From Octopus vulgaris (taxonomy: Eukaryota), in the NCBI GenBank assembly GCA_951406725.2, contig OX597827.1, positions 51,770,001 through 51,834,000 of the forward strand: a DNA stretch of 64,000 nucleotides. The letters are read 5' to 3'. The notes below the pieces were generated by a model. That model did not search any database, had not been told where the DNA came from, and saw only the letters and a program-made list of their open reading frames with translations. Shown here piece by piece: positions 1,861 to 43,800 of the stretch (the stretch's first letter is position 1; each line of letters opens with the position of its first letter). The translations under genes and the position numbers were made by a program.

Positions 1861-2058
1861 AGAAAGTTAGAAAGAAACATCTAATGACATAATTAGCAGC
1901 AACTGAATAAAATCTATTTTAGCAAACTACTACTGTCTTATAAAATACTTTAAACCAATGCTAACCCAAGAAAACTTGTTAAAATTAATTGAACTTAGAG
2001 ATAAAAAGATGTGAAATGTTTATAATTATTCAGATTTTCACTATTTTCTCTTCTTCAG

Positions 2059-3807
2059 ATCTATGAAAATCCAGATAATGTCACTACAGAGAGGAGGAAC
2101 AGTGCAAAAGTGGAAAGTGATCTAGAATACACGAAGACTGTCCAGGAATCTCCTGAGTCTGACTCAGAGAATGTAACAAATTCTGTGAAGGAACATGAAT
2201 CAGATAAGAATTTCACTGATAAGCTTCAATCAAAACTTAACCGCAACAGTGCTAACATGAATGCAGCTGGTAAAAATAATAGTGCAATGCGACCAAAATC
2301 TATACCACCACCTCCTCCTAAATATCCAGATGCTATGGCTCCTAAGAAAAAGATTCCTACAAAAGTAACAAATGAGCCTGGAAAGAAATCGGTTAATCTT
2401 CCAAAACCACTGCTACACAATAATGTTCCTCCTTCTGGTGTTGAAACTGTAAAAGTGATGCCAAATGCAGCAAGTGAATCAAACTTTACTGATGAGCTTC
2501 AGTCTAAATTGACCAAATTAAAACCCCAACAACAGGTGTCTAAACCAGACTCTACAGCACCTGCCAGCAGTCAACCTCCAAAATATAATGTAAGGCAGTC
2601 AAGTCTTAAGAAATCACTCGTTCCAAAAGAGAAACCTACGCCAATGTCACCACCACAACCATCTTCATTATCATTGGCTAGTGCACTAAAACAGAAACAA
2701 AACAGCTCAAATAATTTTCAACATGACATTACTGAATCAAAAGGGAGAGAAACTGAGTCAAAAGAGAAAGATACTGCACGTTATAGTGGATCTAAACTTT
2801 CAGATAGGATTGCTAAATTTCAGAACCAGAGTGAAAACAAGGATGCAAACATAACCACAGGAAATAACCGAGGTCTGAATTTGTTGAAACGGCAACAGGA
2901 AAAATTTAAATTGGATGACCCTAATTTACAAGACAACAAAAATAAAACAGGTTTTTCTAGCTCAAAGCCAAGTCCTGCCATACCTCAGAAACCACCAGTA
3001 TTCAGCAAAGCTGCTCTGAAACCCACGGTTAAGAGTTCTCAAGAGAGTGTCCCTGCTAATGTGGGTCTTAAACCTAAAGTGTCATTCACAAAGCCAAAGT
3101 TAAATCAGAATGTTACTCAGAGTAATCCCCAAACAATTGCTTCAAAATATCCCCAGTTTCAAGCCCAGAAAACAGCACCTGTATCAAAACCAGCACAAGT
3201 TGGTCATAAGTCGACTCTTCAGCCACCATCCACTCCAACAAATAAACCTAATTGGAAAATTGCAGATAGTGCTGAAATAAAGTACCAGGCTTCTCATAGC
3301 TACCAGGCAGAAAATGCTGAAGAGATTAGCTTTGTCCGTGATGATTCCATTGAAGTGTTGGAGAAAGATGAGTCAGGTTGGTGGCTGGTGAGGGTTGGCA
3401 CAGAAAAAGGCTGGGCACCTTCAAATTACATTGAAGAAGTGAAACCAGTGACTAGCCGGAAGTTAAATCCTCCTAAGAAACCCCTTCCCAAACTAACACC
3501 AGGAAGCCCAGCCAAAAACACAACATTAGATTCCAGCAACAACAATAATTGTAATAATAACACTTCAACTCAATGCAGCGAGAATGACAGCAGCAAAAAG
3601 GATGGTAACAACAGAATCTTCAATGACTGCCTGTATATAGTCATGGAAGATTTCAGTGCTTTCAGTGACGAAGAGCTGTCAGTGGAGGAAGGAATGTATG
3701 TGAATGTAATAGATAATTCAAACAATGAATGGTGGTATGTTTCACTTCACACTGGTGAAGAAGGATGGGTTCCTGCAAACTGTATAAGCACTGTACATGA
3801 TGTCTGA
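2059..3807 (+). CDS. Terminal coding exon of a proline-rich adaptor/scaffold with two C-terminal SH3 domains (SH3PXD2/Tks-like or similar); upstream exons not identified in the window
   Basis: Polypyrimidine acceptor ttttctcttcttcag at 2044-2058 opens in phase 0 (IYENPDNV...) into the 565-aa ORF. It contains PxxP-rich stretches and two SH3 domains (YQASHSYQAENAEEISF...GWWLVR...GWAPSNYI; YIVMEDFSAFSDEELSV...WWYV...GWVPANCI). Stop TGA at 3805-3807. Confidence 0.88.
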   Translation: MYENPDNVTTERRNSAKVESDLEYTKTVQESPESDSENVTNSVKEHESDKNFTDKLQSKLNRNSANMNAAGKNNSAMRPKSIPPPPPKYPDAMAPKKKIPTKVTNEPGKKSVNLPKPLLHNNVPPSGVETVKVMPNAASESNFTDELQSKLTKLKPQQQVSKPDSTAPASSQPPKYNVRQSSLKKSLVPKEKPTPMSPPQPSSLSLASALKQKQNSSNNFQHDITESKGRETESKEKDTARYSGSKLSDRIAKFQNQSENKDANITTGNNRGLNLLKRQQEKFKLDDPNLQDNKNKTGFSSSKPSPAIPQKPPVFSKAALKPTVKSSQESVPANVGLKPKVSFTKPKLNQNVTQSNPQTIASKYPQFQAQKTAPVSKPAQVGHKSTLQPPSTPTNKPNWKIADSAEIKYQASHSYQAENAEEISFVRDDSIEVLEKDESGWWLVRVGTEKGWAPSNYIEEVKPVTSRKLNPPKKPLPKLTPGSPAKNTTLDSSNNNNCNNNTSTQCSENDSSKKDGNNRIFNDCLYIVMEDFSAFSDEELSVEEGMYVNVIDNSNNEWWYVSLHTGEEGWVPANCISTVHDV

Positions 3808-8030: not shown

Positions 8031-9034
8031 TTGGGTTGAGTCATAAATAATTTCCTTCCTTTGGAAGCAAATTGTAATGACACATTTCAAACTTCAGATG
8101 TTTAAAATTGCAATGGAAACTACCATTTTTAAAAGACCCTCATCTGTTATTCGTATGTAAGCAGGGAAATTGTGCACATCATTGTTTAATATGAACTGAA
8201 AGTGCATATTCAACATGTGATACTGTGAGTGTTTAAGAATGGAAAAAATTCCACAGAAATAGCTAAGAAAATATGCTGTGTTTATGGCCAAGGTGTCATT
8301 ACTGTCCAGCAAGTTCCCCATATTCTTAGTGAGAAGAATAGGGAAGATCACATGTCCATGGGGACAAGTCTTCTATCAAAGTATAAAAATGACCCATTTC
8401 TCAATAATACCATTACAGGTGATGGAAAATGGGTCTTTTATGACAATGTTCAATGCAAAAGGCAGTGGACTGATAAGAATAAATCTCTACAACTTATCTC
8501 AAAGGCTGAGCTCTATGGAAGGAAGGTTATGCTGTGTGTACGGTGGAATCACCGTTTTGAGTTTTTAAACTGCATTCAAACACTAAAGCTGGCATATGCT
8601 CCCAACAGCTGCAAAATGTGCATGAAAATCTTTTAAGAAAATACCCTGTACTCGTTAATAGTAGAAACATTGTATTTCTCCATGATAACACAAGACCACA
8701 TTCAGCAAGGATCACACAGGATAAAATATTGGTTTTAGGCTGGTGTGTTCTACTCCATCCACCATTTTCACTGGACCTTGCACCAACTGATTTCTATCTT
8801 CTGATGGAGAAACATTTTTCCTCAAGAAAATCAGGTGAAGACGTGTGTGGATAGCTTTTTCATGTTGAGGCCAGCTTAATTTTACATGAGAGGAATCAAA
8901 AAGCTATCTAAAAAATAGCAAGAGGTCGTTCAAAATAATGGCAATATACTGATAATTGAAAATAATTCTTTGTAAAATTTTTTCATGAGTAAAGGTATTT
9001 AACAAAATCAGAAATCATTTATGACTCAACCCAA
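8031..9034 (+). mobile_element. Mariner (Tc1/mariner) transposon, defective transposase
   Basis: TIRs ttgggttgagtcataaat / atttatgactcaacccaa flanked by TA. Broken ORFs carry TITGDGKWVFYDN, LHDNTRPH and HPPFSLDLAPTDF. Confidence 0.92.
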
Positions 9035-14909: not shown

Positions 14910-15974
14910 ATATGTGTGTGTGTGAGAGAGAGAGTTGGAGTAGGAAGAAGGTAAAAATTATTTGATAAATGAAATGGTAAAGAAGAGAAGATAAAAAGGA
15001 AAAAATTAGACTGCTAGGTGAGAGAAAGAGAGAAAGGAAAGAAAATGAGTGAAAGTAGCGAAACTATCAACAAGGAGTAAGGAGTGAAGTAGAACAGTAA
15101 AGGAAATCAGTTACTATAGTAACTGACAGAGGAGGAGGAGGAAGAGGAGAAGGAGACAATAACAACAAACAAAAGAAAACTGGGAGACGATAAGGGTGGA
15201 TGTTATGGTTGGGTTTGCTCTCATACACACATTTTTGCACTATTTAGTTCCAATTGTGTTGTTTCTTTTTACACAAATGACAATTCACCTTCCTTTTCTC
15301 ATGAAATTAATAAAATTGAATATTTGACAAGGCTTTAGTGTTGATACAATTGACTAAAACCACTAATGATGATCCAGTATGACCATTGTCCATTGAGGAA
15401 TACTAGGAAATTAAAAGAATAGTGTCATTTTTTTGATAGCCAGTTATCCTTACACAACACAACTGGCATATTAAATGCTGTCCGTGCTAGTAAAACAGAA
15501 AGTAGGATATGATATAAACCTTCTAGAGAAACTTAAGCACAATTAGAAAATTTTACAATCCTCTTGAAATAAATATTATGAATGATGTGTATATGTGTGA
15601 CTAATACTAGAATTTGCAGATATATACTTTACTTTAATCCTTTCAAGATAAAATTGTATAAATGGCTGTTTGATAAGACAGAAATTTCTTAAATAAACTA
15701 CTATATACTAGAAGTCATTGCACTTCCATTACACAACCATTCTCTTATCTAAGACAAACAAAACTGAACCTTTGATATCATATCACATGTCTAATCTACT
15801 ATGTTTTAAAATACAAAGTTTATTTATTGTCACCCACTGTTATTTGAAAGAGAAATAGAAGCCAGCTGGTCAGTATATTAAATCTTACCAGTGTATTAAA
15901 TACCGGAGCATTATCAATGTAATAATTCTAAGAACAGCTTGAAATGAACATTTCTGTCAAAAAAATCTTAAAAA

Positions 15975-18143
15975 ATGTCATCAATAGATACAATGTTAAC
16001 TGAAATTTCTAATGGAAGTACATTTAACTGCAATAATACAAGTAGTGAGGATGTCATTTCTATTGCTTATAATTTTGCTTTTAATTCAGTAATATGGATT
16101 GTCTGTTTGATAATATTTTCAATCATACCAAAACTGATCCAAAACTATCGTCAAAACGAAGCTTCATGTATCAGTCCATCTTCTAATACTTTAACAGATT
16201 TATCATCTGTCAGTGAATTGCAGTTGAGTTGTGAATCAACAACAGCCGAGACTTCATTTCCAGAACATCTTCGTCAGACAGATCAATTCACTTCCTGGCT
16301 CCGAGTTTTCTGGCGACTCACCGACAAGGATATCACACAAAAATGTGGGCTAGATGCTATAGCTTATTTGCGCTTTCAAAGGTATTTGATTGGTTACCTT
16401 TTCTTCATATTATTTCTCACTCTTGTGATAATCTTACCTGTTAATTATACAGGAGGACAATTTACACCTAAGGATATTAGTAGTACAACAACAATTAATG
16501 TTCACTCCAATCTTCTTTGGCTACATGTCTCAGTTTCCCTTTTATATTTACTAGCAACCATATTCTTGCTGCTTCGTTTATCACAGCATTTATGGACAAG
16601 TAATAAATCAAATACCTTGCTGATAAGTAATATCCCTCAGGTTGAAAACAGCAAGAATTTGATTGAATTGCATTTGAACAGAGCATATCCAAATATAACT
16701 GTTAAGAAAATAGTAAATGTGTATGATACCAGAAAAATCTTGGAATTAGACCAAAAACTTCAAAAAATCCGTCATCTCAAAGAGCATTACCAAAATGTTG
16801 TAAACGCAGAAACCTATCAAGAATCTGACATCAAAGAAAATGTTGAGAGTACATGTTTTAGAAGTAATTATATAAACAACCTTGATGAAACAGAGGAAAC
16901 AATCTTATCGGAGAGAGCCATGGAAAGTGAGCAACTTAAAGAAAAATCACTGGGAATAGTATTTGTGAAATTAGCTTCAGTAGAAGAGGCAGAATATATA
17001 TATTCATCTTTTCATTCATTTTGCAAATGCAAACGTCCTGTCATCCCATCAGAATTTAGTGATGTACTAAAAGTCAAAAAGTGGCGAATGAGTTATGCTC
17101 CACGTAAGGAAGATATTATCTGGCAAAATTTGCCTACCTCACATTTTTCTAAATTTATTAGAAAAATAATAGTTGCAGCTATTTTGTTTTTTGCCTGTTT
17201 AGTTGTCACAAGTCCTGCTCTTGTTACATCTCTTTTTGAAAAAATTAACAAGACAAACTCTCCCTTCTTAGAAATTATACAAAGTCTTCTGCTTAAATTT
17301 ATGGTTAATCTACTACCAATGATTGTAACTGCTTCAATTGCCTTTCTAAGGAGTTGGACTAAAAGTTTAAAACAGAAAAAAACCATGATAGCTTTGTTTA
17401 CAACACTTTTATTTGCGGTTCTAATCTTACCATCACTGGGTCTGACAACATATGATTTTCTGTCCAAATCTGTGAATATACAATCAAAAATGCATTGTAT
17501 ATTCACAATGGGAAATAATTATTTGTTTGTGAACTATGTCATAGTTTCAGCACTCATTGGCACTGGTCTTGAACTTCTTCGAATTTCTGAATTACTAACG
17601 CTACTGTGGCGTTACTTGACAATCCGTTCAACCGTAAAGAGAAGGACATTAAGAGAATATGATACCATTGAATTTGATTTTGGTGAACAGTATGCATGGA
17701 TCCTCTGCCTGTTCTCTGTGGTCGTTACATACAGCATACTCTTCCCAATTATTTCAATATTTGGATGTCTCTACATCATTCTCAAATATTGCGTCGATCG
17801 TTACAACTTGTATTTTATTTACAGGAAGTCATATGTTCACAAAACCGTGCACTTGTCAGCAACAAACATAATGGTTTTAACGTCCATACTACCTCAATTC
17901 TGCATCTTGGAATTCACTCTCCTGGTAACTTCAGATAATCACTTGCCTCCACATGTATTTTACTACTCTTTAGCTGTATTTGTGCTCAGCTTGACTGTCT
18001 CTATATCCATCATTGTGTGGTTTTACTTTAAGCAACAGCAAGTCATCAGGTTTGTCAATCGTCTGACCAATGGATGTTGTTGTGTCAGTGAACCAAAACT
18101 AAACAGTACTAAATGCGACTATGGTTCAGTAAACAATTCTTGA
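15975..18143 (+). CDS. TMEM63: Intronless TMEM63/OSCA (CSC1-like) mechano/osmosensitive cation channel, 722 aa, divergent paralog
   Basis: Uninterrupted ORF with an in-frame TAA just upstream of the ATG. Family motifs occur in order: CGLDAIAYLRFQRYLIGYL, IILPVNYTG, LLWLH, TLLISNIP, GIVFVKL, WRMSYAPRKEDIIWQNL, LILPSLGLT, FVNYVIVSALIG, EFDFGEQYAW, KYCVDRYNLYFIY. About 11 hydrophobic segments. Confidence 0.93.
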   Translation: MSSIDTMLTEISNGSTFNCNNTSSEDVISIAYNFAFNSVIWIVCLIIFSIIPKLIQNYRQNEASCISPSSNTLTDLSSVSELQLSCESTTAETSFPEHLRQTDQFTSWLRVFWRLTDKDITQKCGLDAIAYLRFQRYLIGYLFFILFLTLVIILPVNYTGGQFTPKDISSTTTINVHSNLLWLHVSVSLLYLLATIFLLLRLSQHLWTSNKSNTLLISNIPQVENSKNLIELHLNRAYPNITVKKIVNVYDTRKILELDQKLQKIRHLKEHYQNVVNAETYQESDIKENVESTCFRSNYINNLDETEETILSERAMESEQLKEKSLGIVFVKLASVEEAEYIYSSFHSFCKCKRPVIPSEFSDVLKVKKWRMSYAPRKEDIIWQNLPTSHFSKFIRKIIVAAILFFACLVVTSPALVTSLFEKINKTNSPFLEIIQSLLLKFMVNLLPMIVTASIAFLRSWTKSLKQKKTMIALFTTLLFAVLILPSLGLTTYDFLSKSVNIQSKMHCIFTMGNNYLFVNYVIVSALIGTGLELLRISELLTLLWRYLTIRSTVKRRTLREYDTIEFDFGEQYAWILCLFSVVVTYSILFPIISIFGCLYIILKYCVDRYNLYFIYRKSYVHKTVHLSATNIMVLTSILPQFCILEFTLLVTSDNHLPPHVFYYSLAVFVLSLTVSISIIVWFYFKQQQVIRFVNRLTNGCCCVSEPKLNSTKCDYGSVNNS

Positions 18144-18550
18144 TAATGGATTAACTTTCATTCGGTGTGAGATTCTCTGTGTGTCATGGATGAGAATGTG
18201 TGTGTGTAACTTGTTTTAGTCAGTGTGGATACGAAATCGCATTCATACATATTTACATATATAATTTTGTTGGTTCCAGTCACTTAATTACAACCATAAT
18301 TAATCTGATACTCATTTCTCAAAATCTAAAGAATAGTTGCACAAACCGAGTTTAGAGAGTTATGTACCTTTAATGATATGAATGCCTGTGTGCGTGTGTG
18401 TGTGTGTGAGAGGGATCTATTTATCCATCTATCTGTCTGTCTGTCCACTCACTTGGCTTTCTCTCTGCTTGACTTCCTGCCAGCCTGTCTGTAAACGTAC
18501 ACACACACATACACACACACGTACACACACACACACGTGTTCAAGCCAAA

Positions 18551-18651: not shown

Positions 18652-18736
18652 ATGGAGTTTCTCCTGATACCTTTTCTACATATCAAGCCCCACTTCCCCC
18701 AAAGTTTCAAGCCATGTGCCTGTAGTAAAAAAAAAT

Positions 18737-18898
<162 letters not shown>

Positions 18899-18949: not shown

Positions 18950-20356
18950 AAAGTTTTGAATGGTACAACAATGCACTATGATACAGACAATGGGCTATAT
19001 ACCTGTTGTAATTTAGACATCCATAGTCTGATATGATATTTTGGAATAATATTCCTTCTTCAGATATTCTTAGATGGAGTCGCTGCTATAATCGGTTTTC
19101 TAACGACTTTTCTTTTTTATGTTTTTGGAAGTGTCTCAGCAGTGGTCTCACGATGCTACTTCCAGAACTCCTCAAGAGAAGTGTGTGAAGTTGGCCATGT
19201 CTCAATCTCGTGCGGGCTGGTACATCCGTAGCGCTGCTTCTGAGATATGTATTTATACGTGCAGCCTCCTTTTTTTTTTTAAGTACCCAAAACGACCAAC
19301 ATGCTGAACACATAGAAAACCCAGCAATACATGCTTCCTTTAAAATACTCCATTTTAGCAAGAGGATAACTACATCCATCCGAAGAGCCATAAGAAGAGA
19401 AGGGCTAGATGTACAACAAGCCCACTCTGGCCCCTCTCTGAGAGGACACCTCACTAAGAAACGAACAAGGAACAACAATCAATGTACACTAACAAACTGT
19501 CCCATCCATGACACAGATTTATGCCAACGGGTAAATGTTGTGTATAGAATACAATGTAACAAATGCAACAAGTTCTATGTGGATAGCACAACAAGACCGT
19601 TACACATCCACATCAAAGAACATCTGCACATGAGAACTTCCTCCTTCAGAAAACATCTAGACAGATGCCGGAACACCGACAAAAGCATAACAATCTTAAT
19701 TGAGGCCAATGAAAGAAATTTGAGATGTACTTGCATAGCAAGTGATTTGATCTGAGATCGTGTGCTGAAACGAAAACAATTGCAGCGTGGAAGGTGTTTG
19801 TAAGCCATTTAAGAAACACACAAAAGCCATTCGAAGTGAAAGAAATTTGAGTAATTTAAGGAAGCTATACTCATACACAGACTAGGGCCCCAAATTAACA
19901 ACAGGCTAGAGGTTGGTAATCAATACATTATTTAGCTACATCTGGATGCGTGTAAGTTCATTTTTGATAATATGCTCATCTGTAGTTTATAACAAAAAAA
20001 AAAAGAAGAGAAGAGAGAAAAAAGAAGGGGAAAAAGGAAGCTGCATGTATAATAGGTACCTCAGAAGCAGCGTTACAGATGTACCAGCACACACGAGATT
20101 GAGAAATGGCTGACTTCACACACTTTGTCATGAGAAATTCCAGAAGGAGCATCGTGAGACCACTGCTGAGATGCTTCCAAAAAATAAAAAAGAAAAGTCA
20201 TTAGAAAACCGATTATAGCAGCGACTCCATCTGAGTATATCTGAAGAAGGAATATTATTCCGAAATATCGTATCAGACTATGGAAGACTAAATTACAACA
20301 GGTATATAGCCCATTGTCTGTATCATAATGCATTGTTGTACCATTCAAAACTTTTT
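18950..20356 (+). mobile_element. 5'-truncated Penelope-like element: GIY-YIG endonuclease remnant between inverted pseudo-LTRs
   Basis: ORF 19210-19755 contains CPIHDTDLCQRVNVVYRIQCNKCNKFYVDSTTRPLHIHIKEH. Segment ~18950-19265 is the reverse complement of ~20040-20356. (ATT)n tracts lie on both flanks. Confidence 0.88.
20226..20284 (+). ncRNA. Type I hammerhead ribozyme motif in the Penelope 3' pseudo-LTR
   Basis: CTGAAGA (20241-47), extra A, helix II GGAAT/ATTCC, GAAA (20262-65), helix III ATA-tcg-TAT, cleavage triplet AUC (C20274). Helix I is imperfect (tccat/atgga distal). The inverted copy near 19020-19075 has GAAA mutated to AAAA. Confidence 0.65.
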
Positions 20357-42599: not shown

Positions 42600-43800
42600 A
42601 ATAACAGGTATGGTTTCTATTTAGAGGAGCAGAGTTTTGCCAGCATGTCTTCATGCTTGCACGAAGTTGGTCCTGATGTTGGAGTCGACTTTGCTCGAAT
42701 CTTTGAACTCAAATCTTTTAGGAGAAGCACGACTGGCACCAGGTCCTGCGTTCTGATGTTTTGTTTTCTCACGAAGAAAAGAGAATGTTCAAATTGTCTT
42801 TTAGCTTGTCTTTGAAGCGTAAGAGAGACCTTGCAACTGACATTCCTGTTGGCAATTGGCCAAAGAGAAGTTGATTTGGAATTCTGATATCACTCATACG
42901 TGAGAGATGACCTGACCATCTAAGCTGTATTTTGATGAGGATGGCCTTAATACTTGATATGTTGCATTTTGTTATCACCGTACTGTTACGAATGTGGTCA
43001 CTCGGTTTTATGTTGGATATAGTACGCAAGCATTGCATATGAAAAGCATCAAGCTGGTTGATATGTTTTCGGTACAGAGTCCAAGATTTAGCACCATATA
43101 GCAATGATGTCAAAACCAGTGACTTATATACATCGACTTTCACCTCAAACGATACGTCGTGGCTGTAAAGCTTACCGAAAGTGAAACAAGCCTTCTCGAT
43201 TATGGACTCAATTTCTTTACCCATCTTAGCATCATTAGACACAATGTAACCAAAGATGAGAGAGGGAGGAAACAGTAGAGGCAACATATATAGCAGAGGC
43301 AACAGTGGGAGGATGGTTATGGATAGCTTAGTTTTCTTGATGCTGATGGTCAGACCAAAAGCCTTCAATGCATGCGAGTTGTTTAGAATCCATTGCATGT
43401 CCTCAAGTATATATGCTACAAGTGCACAGTTGTCTGTGAAGAGTAAATCTGGAACTGTTTGTACCAAAGTCTTAGTTTTTGATTTGAAGCGCTGTTGGTT
43501 GAACATGCTACCATCGGTTTTGTGTTCAAACTTTTCTCCTTCTTTAACACTCTCGGACGCTGTTTCCAACATGGCGGAGAAATACAAAGCAAATAAGAGC
43601 TGTGCAAGAACACAGTCTTGTTTTGTCCCATTTGAGACTGTGAGTGAATTGGACACTTCCCTGCTAGATCTAACAGAAGCCATCATGCCCTGATGGAAAG
43701 AAATGATGACATTTCGGAAACACCTAGCTTTCTAAAGACAATCCAAAGACCATCCCTTGAAACGGTGTCGAAAGCTTTAGTTAGATCTATAAAAGTTCAG
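42600..43800 (-). mobile_element. RTE (BovB-like) LINE RT and 3' region
   Basis: ORF 42769-43686 has NGTKQDCVLAQLLF, DLLFTDNCAL, FGLTISIKKT, LLYGAKSWTLYRKH and LRWSGHLSRMSDIRIPNQLLFGQL; upstream FIDLTKAFDTV. Confidence 0.9.

Follow-up and report, generated by a model that had tools for sequence, protein, structure and literature searches.

The OSCA/TMEM63 family and the model of its TM4 gate are already known, and lysines introduced by engineering are the basis of the gate model for the TMEM16/OSCA/TMEM63/TMC superfamily. W472 of mouse TMEM63A corresponds to F518 of TMEM16F and K435 of Arabidopsis OSCA1.2, S475 to L438, and A476 to A439 (PMC11534332). In the experiments described there, TMEM63A variants W472K and S475K showed spontaneous, punctate PS exposure, and A476K showed none, even after swelling; in all three the V0.5 moved from 122 mV to 92-97 mV (96 mV for W472K, 97 mV for A476K). 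Wild-type OSCA1.2 with its native K435 exposed no PS in the same study, neither at rest nor on swelling. Values at rest of 63, 31 and 10% were given for L438K, K435L/L438K and A439K, respectively, the last being an osmolarity-sensing scramblase with strong activity on hypotonic shock and little at rest. Stacked TM4 charges were additive, and TMC1 M412K, the equivalent of A476, is cited there as exposing PS constitutively (PMC11534332).

In a second laboratory, W472K and W472G raised annexin V labelling, W473 and Y559 of TMEM63A were described as the lipid gate with Y484 as the lower bottleneck, and wild-type OSCA/TMEM63 proteins scrambled in liposomes and under force (PMC13013810). These two engineering studies are the only ones on W472K that our literature search found (PMC11534332, PMC13013810). 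For TMEM63B, variant W485A is reported to have almost abolished induced scrambling, and TM4 to kink at P492 on opening (PMC11753361). In simulations of OSCA1.2, K435 holds a lipid headgroup, while L438 and F515 line the neck (PMC6235563); OSCA1.1 F516A is described as a slight gain of function (PMC11362595). The data behind the gate model are in conflict, as W472K gains scrambling in TMEM63A, W485A loses it in TMEM63B and K435 is silent in OSCA1.2. A single TMEM63 is reported for many invertebrates (PMC13494684). The octopod proteins described here are public under generic names; what is new, judged from their sequences, is that the engineered gain-of-function gate has a natural counterpart, and that the animal carrying it also has a canonical gene to serve as control.

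A second TMEM63 gene in octopods

The window, a stretch of 64,000 nucleotides of Octopus vulgaris DNA, contains a single open reading frame of 722 codons (15975-18143, + strand), which according to the frame list and its translation encodes a complete TMEM63 protein of 722 aa without introns. RSN1_TM (67.5 bits), PHM7_cyt (65.3 bits) and RSN1_7TM (101.4 bits), all above the curated Pfam cut-offs, follow each other in the domain order of the OSCA/TMEM63 (CSC1) family. The protein is identical to 'CSC1-like protein 2' of Octopus sinensis (P0002) at 718 of 722 positions, leaving 4 differences, which points to DNA of that species or of a very near one. Its AlphaFold2 (AF2) model (pLDDT 82.5, pTM 0.85) has the 11-TM fold with the cytosolic IL2 domain, in agreement with Foldseek and VIA. 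Foldseek listed TMEM63A/B/C first and OSCAs next (E 2e-30 to 8wg4; TMq 0.60-0.75 to 10 TMEM63 entries), and VIA gave a Z of 39.1 and an rmsd of 4.2 over 562 residues against 9n95. HMMER matches to PDB sequences had E-values of 1e-78 to 1e-95 for TMEM63 and of 1e-16 or weaker for OSCA. The three Pfam domains and the 11-helix fold are shared with metazoan TMEM63 (human TMEM63A/B/C and the canonical octopus protein XP_029637641). The protein would probably carry a membrane-tension-activated cation current. In a tblastn search with five TMEM63-family queries, no further TMEM63 copy or exon was found in the 64-kb window. At position 16351 the window encodes Leu126, where P0002, P0003, P0004 and the contigs of runs X5, X10 and X14 have Pro; since the contig of run X1 agrees with the window, Leu126 is likely an allele.

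Four group members were found: the window protein together with that of O. sinensis, one of O. bimaculoides (89% identity), one Logan protein (83%) and one of Argonauta hians (58-60%). Beyond this octopod group identity falls to ~35% in the protein searches, and the same gap appeared when 1.84 billion representatives were searched without an index. No squid or cuttlefish ortholog was among the matches of these searches, in which the next protein after the octopod group lies at 34-35%. A mussel-like TMEM63 query recovered P0290, the canonical octopus gene; clustered with it at 90% are the O. sinensis isoforms X1-X4 and proteins of O. vulgaris, O. bimaculoides and Argonauta, and a canonical Sepia protein falls in a separate cluster. 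The existence of this copy rules out that the window gene is the sole, merely divergent TMEM63 of the octopus; it appears instead as a second, extra TMEM63 of octopods. The two proteins share 34.4% identity and differ in that the paralog is intronless, ~70 residues shorter and, as estimated from sequence comparison, evolves ~tenfold faster. Between Octopus and Argonauta, identity is 91.0% for the canonical protein and 58.0% for the paralog, with tree paths of 0.10 and 1.09 changes per site, respectively.

All trees were quick trees. The paralog falls inside Mollusca with an SH-aLRT of 99 and a very long stem, and within the metazoan clade in a tree with two fungal rows; it groups with metazoan TMEM63 and not with plant/fungal OSCA, and match scores and trees rule out a plant origin or transfer. 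Its placement within Mollusca is not pinned down by the free tree. Constraining it with the cephalopod canonical rows gave an lnL 1.43 above that of the free tree (p-AU 0.825), and a constraint with the octopod canonical rows only was not rejected (p-AU 0.114). The canonical gene, with its isoforms X1-X4, lies on a 120 Mb contig, and the paralog, a single ORF with unspliced contigs, on a contig of 68 Mb, the arrangement of a retrogene with an intronless CDS and a presumably spliced parent elsewhere. The paralog is likely a retrocopy, possibly of the canonical cephalopod TMEM63; retroposition is suggested because it has no introns and lies on a separate chromosome. As the canonical octopus copy keeps the gate residues W-I-L-S-A, the paralog would be free to diverge. 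In animals whose tissue is as soft and as easily deformed as that of octopods, a duplicated mechanosensor gene deserves attention.

Four runs of four studies, guessed to be RNA, provided single unspliced contigs over 15854-18377, a likely transcript that we list on the + strand, the contigs themselves giving no strand. The contig of X1 spans 15854-18377 and runs on to 18700 past a repeat, that of X5 spans 15877-18377 and that of X14 16025-18376, and X10 covers the gene in two pieces; at 15480-15803 the depth was 0 in all 4 runs. At least 13 runs from 4 studies have contigs over the gene; they are likely RNA by the tool's guess, none being recorded as such. The unspliced contigs are a hint of transcription of the paralog.

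An open frame of 714-729 aa is kept in the 4 lineages down to 58% identity. Compared with run X14, a stretch of 317 bases has 9 nonsynonymous and 7 synonymous differences (ratio ~0.4, Fisher p 0.064 against neutrality). Among the 4 paralogs 362 of 705 columns are invariant, with 58 of 76 in TM6-TM8 and 11 of 29 in TM4; among the helices, conservation is lowest in TM3 and TM4.

The TM4 gate and other gating residues

TM4 of the paralog comprises approximately residues 430-458 (17262-17348, + strand; AF2 helix 430-456), of which residues 433-448 of the window ORF read EIIQSLLLKFMVNLLP. It aligns without gaps to TM4 of the solved human TMEM63A and TMEM63B. The HMMER alignments, from whose line ends the TMEM63A/TMEM63B residue numbers were counted back, pair K441 with the Trp and N445 with the Ala of QFFPTLLLWSFSALLP. 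Lys and Asn at the vertebrate Trp and Ala positions had been proposed in the initial annotation, and this exchange holds: the codons are AAA at 17295-17297 and AAT at 17307-17309, the gap-free alignment pairs them with W473 and A477 of human TMEM63A, and in the multiple alignment with metazoan TMEM63 K441 stays on the gate column. K441 is thus the lipid-gate position of W473 (human TMEM63A), W472 (mouse), W485 (TMEM63B), F518 (TMEM16F) and K435 (OSCA1.2). V444 (17304-17306) corresponds to S475 of mouse and S476 of human TMEM63A and to L438 of OSCA1.2, and N445 to A477 of human and A476 of mouse TMEM63A, A489 of TMEM63B, A439 of OSCA1.2 and M412 of TMC1. All four paralogs have K at 441 and V at 444, and position 445 is N, N, H and K across them. 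Further equivalences to human TMEM63A are T452 with Y484, Y521 with Y559 and W575 with W613, and to TMEM63B Q436 with P480, P448 with P492, E533 with D584, R536 with R587 and R546 with R597.

Between its anchored positions TM4 is gap-free in several alignments, which rules out an alignment artefact. A sequencing error is excluded by the Lys in 4 of 4 paralogs and by the codons of K441 and N445, which are unaltered in the contigs of X1 and X5 when all differences over the gene are listed. No A-to-I editing of either codon was seen in the X1 and X5 contig consensus, from which minority variants are dropped. With 362 of 705 columns and 21 of 39 Lys invariant, the invariance of K441 does not exceed the base rate and was discarded as a sign of selection.

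The TM4 of canonical octopus TMEM63 reads QFVPTFLIWILSAILP, with the gate motif W-x-x-S-A. Its P-T-F-L-I-W-I-L-S-A contrasts with Q-S-L-L-L-K-F-M-V-N in the paralog, and the Argonauta paralog (P0005, GAB1603921.1) reads LLKFLVKILP, with two stacked Lys at the W472 and A476 positions. All 4 paralogs thus carry the Lys of the engineered mouse variant W472K (PMC11534332, PMC13013810), and Argonauta also that of A476K (PMC11534332). In contrast to those mutants, the paralogs are natural, fixed and ~30% identical to the mouse protein, have Val at the S475 position and show both positions changed together. One animal with a canonical W-x-x-S-A and a natural K-x-x-V-(N/H/K), graded across species, makes the gate model testable in wild-type proteins.

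The Lys had also been called plant OSCA-type. It does occupy the position of OSCA1.2 K435: OSCA1.2 reads P-G-I-A-L-K-L-F-L-A-F-L-P, with the same 5+7 spacing around K435 as around K441, K435-x-x-L438 matches K441-x-x-V444, and the K435/L438/K439 of the A439K mutant matches Argonauta. Structural identity to OSCA1.2 is only 15-17%. The Lys is convergent and not plant-derived, since the protein groups with animal TMEM63s, inside Mollusca; basic residues at this site occur in rotifers and acanthocephalans too. The reported loss of the TM4 Pro applies to the FLPT proline (63B P480), replaced by Q436 (17280-17282) and present in 269 of 304 other rows, and not to the gating-kink proline (63B P492), which HMMER aligns to a retained P448 (17316-17318). 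The neighbouring exchange of Ser for V444 copies the OSCA1.2 pattern without resting PS exposure.

For the frequency of the gate residues, 304 other rows that are gap-free over 434-451 and have a Pro at 448 were used, after 40 of 344 rows had been dropped. Column 441 holds W in 198 rows, L in 64, V in 12, I in 8, M and F in 6 each, R in 5, K in 2, and S, N and Y in one each. A hydrophobic TM4 gate residue, mostly Trp or Leu, is a common trait of animal TMEM63 (W, L, V, I, M, F or Y in 295 of 304 rows), though no strict criterion given 7 rows with K or R, and K441 departs from it. The possibility that Lys is common here in invertebrate TMEM63s is refuted by these counts (K in 2/304, basic in 7/304), and in the mollusc/lophotrochozoan subset the column holds W in 51 and L in 4 rows, with K or R in 0 of 55. 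At column 445, Ala occupies 225 of the 304 other rows, Asn 3 and Lys, Arg or His none; at column 444, 293 rows have S, A or T and 2 have V or L.

The seven basic-gate rows are P0133, P0135, P0139, P0155, P0173, P0180 and P0208, the named ones being Seison, Didymodactylos, a Brachionus cluster and Pomphorhynchus. As these are rotifers and an acanthocephalan, a basic gate arose at least one more time in animals, and their TMEM63s form a second natural basic-gate group. With the paralog they share a basic residue, Arg or Lys, at the gate column; unlike it, they retain the FLPT proline, have a small residue at 444 and lack N, H or K at 445. The clade of the rotifer basic-gate proteins includes the bdelloids, which are desiccation-tolerant. 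A functional study of these proteins was not found in our search of article listings, nor was a paper on the octopod TMEM63 paralog.

Among the other gating residues, the kink prolines, the Tyr gate partner of TM6 and the charged residues of TM6 and TM8 are shared with metazoan TMEM63. All 4 paralogs keep the TM3, TM4 and TM5 kink prolines (P414, P448 and P486) and Y521, R536, R546, W575, K604 and D608, that is, gating residues used by TMEM63B and TMEM63A. In TM6, the acidic and basic pore residues E533 and R536 (17571-17582, + strand; 63B D584 and R587) are retained, with Q in place of E533 in P0004. In TM6a (L517 to Y521, 17523-17537, + strand), Y521 is the kept gate partner (human 63A Y559), and L517 replaces the Phe of the constriction (OSCA1.2 F515, OSCA1.1 F516), which is present in 89% of other rows. 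At 452 (human Y484) the paralogs have the small residues T or V. Unlike metazoan TMEM63, they have replaced the TM0 GIP motif, the TM3 Asn, the TM5 Lys and the TM6a Phe; A473 (17391-17393, + strand) stands in TM5 for a Lys (human 63A K505) found in 94% of other full-length rows. Family-conserved sites, at which 80% or more of the other rows share a residue, number 134; of these, 36 are lost in all four paralogs, including TM0 G29/P31, TM3 N401 and TM5 K473, a wide remodelling of the protein.

At only eight positions do all 4 paralogs carry a polar residue where 85% or more of the 270 other full-length rows have a hydrophobic one. With helix boundaries set in the present analysis, 441, 445 and 646 lie inside membrane helices and 393 at the start of TM3; 441 and 445 are one turn apart on the gate. 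In TM9, all four paralogs have gained a Glu (E646, 17910-17912) and lost an Arg five residues on, at 651; together with A473 (17391-17393), this rearranges the membrane charge pattern beyond TM4. In TM0 (residues 29-56, 16059-16142), which adjoins the lipid pathway in TMEM63B, the GIP motif and the R/W motif that follows it are replaced in all four. The V44/V53 disease position of TM0 was rejected as a paralog trait: the Asn there, at a position that presumably maps to V44, also occurs in the canonical copy and in 128 of 315 rows.

Gating of the paralog and its alternatives

Judged from mutants of homologues, the paralog is probably a channel that opens more easily and also scrambles lipids. 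The link to TM4/TM6 gating drawn in the initial annotation fits the position of K441 on mouse W472, whose Lys mutant exposes PS in two studies (PMC11534332, PMC13013810) and has a left-shifted activation in one (PMC11534332). Its further suggestion, that TM4 charge confers scrambling, finds a parallel in W472K; as wild-type TMEM63s already scramble under force in the published experiments (PMC13013810), scrambling by the paralog would be retuned rather than newly conferred. We give a probability of about 0.5 to a tension-gated channel-scramblase with a threshold below that of the canonical copy and mostly shut at rest. Family, fold, residue equivalences, paralog status and faster evolution are demonstrated above, and the functional steps are transferred from homologue mutants. 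K441 would remove the aromatic lipid gate of W473 and Y559 and supply a charge for lipid headgroups. The N, H or K at 445, one turn below, would give the groove face another polar stop, and L517 in place of Phe and the small residue at 452 (human Y484) would trim two further constrictions. Together, these changes at 441, 445, 517 and 452 may lower the energy needed to part TM4 and TM6 and ease headgroup passage. V444, bulky at the position of OSCA1.2 L438, may reseal the groove in a pattern K-x-x-hydrophobic-polar. In Argonauta, K441, V444 and K445 would reproduce the K435, L438 and K439 of OSCA1.2 A439K, a swelling-activated scramblase.

Several observations weigh against a simple transfer. 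The silence of wild-type OSCA1.2 with K435 indicates that a Lys at the gate is not sufficient in every background, the TMEM63B W485A variant that loss of the Trp can reduce function, and the loss of 36 of 134 conserved sites makes single-site transfer from mammalian mutants unsafe. Rotifer and acanthocephalan proteins that combine K or R at the gate with a small residue at position 444 speak against a lowered threshold. The paralog might instead be an ordinary high-threshold TMEM63 channel-scramblase, in which K441 and N445 are tolerated and offset by V444, the loss of K473 and other changes, any new role coming from expression or localisation and not from the gate. Such compensation, unlikely but to be taken seriously, would fit the ~tenfold faster evolution (path 1.09 vs 0.10, identity 58.0% vs 91.0%), the 36 of 134 lost sites, the position of TM3 and TM4 as least conserved helices, the tolerance seen in native K435 of OSCA1.2 and in K or R of Syndermata, and a K473A exchange that could balance the net charge. 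It fits less well with two of three mid-membrane polar gains hitting gate positions that experiments have defined and that lie one turn from each other, with a position 445 that stays polar throughout by way of three residues (N, H and K), and with the shifted gating of each tested Lys at the 441 and 445 positions in TMEM63A (PMC11534332).

A more far-reaching reading is that octopods turned a TMEM63 retrocopy into a dedicated lipid scramblase, natively ungated or hair-trigger, by fixing the TM4 changes that laboratories engineered in TMEM63A and OSCA1.2. We regard this as doubtful; if true, it would make the paralog a TMEM63 of animals with scrambling or low-force sensing as its speciality, with Argonauta carrying a Lys at the Beethoven position of TMC1. 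Improbable, too, is a natural W472K that flips phospholipids without stimulus, perhaps in an organelle or cell type needing exposed PS. W472K by itself led to spontaneous PS exposure in two studies (PMC11534332, PMC13013810), TMC1 M412K at the 445 position is cited as constitutive (PMC11534332), and the paralog has an extra polar residue at 445, T or V at the Y484 equivalent and L at the F555 equivalent. However, V444 mimics L438 of OSCA1.2, where K435 was silent at rest until L438K was added (PMC11534332), and a permanently open state is disfavoured because the Val recreates this arrangement. Contigs in at least 13 likely-RNA runs would fit a broad expression that is hard to reconcile with constant surface PS, and the AF2 comparison gave no wider groove.

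The structure prediction of the TM4/TM6 groove, proposed earlier as a check, did not separate the paralog from the canonical copy. The two AF2 models show the same open/closed preferences and give no support for a more open groove in the paralog: in Foldseek, open-state entries ranked 1st and 3rd for the paralog and took the top two places for the canonical control, and in VIA the closed 9n95 came first in either case. A non-conducting or decaying copy, with a broken pore and a drifting or structural protein, is highly improbable: the long stem branch, the loss of scrambling in 63B W485A (PMC11753361), the Q at E533 in P0004 and the 9 nonsynonymous to 7 synonymous differences in the 317 bases compared with X14 (ratio ~0.4, Fisher p 0.064 against neutrality) would agree with it, but the frame of 714-729 aa is kept in 4 lineages down to 58% identity, TM6-TM8 and the kink prolines are conserved, and AF2 predicts a confident TMEM63 fold.

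Surroundings of the gene

Upstream of the paralog, an open frame of 593 codons (2026-3807, + strand) is proline-rich and has two C-terminal SH3 domains; it is probably the last exon of an upstream gene. A fragment of a Mariner/Mos1-type transposase lies at 8229-8633 (+ strand; PF01359, PF17906). Two open frames, at 19189-19752 (+ strand) and 42772-43731 (- strand), had no Pfam match at 0.001, and by their look we take them to be remains of retroelements, GIY-YIG-like and LINE RT-like, respectively. A (TAT) x 54 microsatellite is located at 18736-18898, ~600 bases 3' of the stop codon of the paralog.
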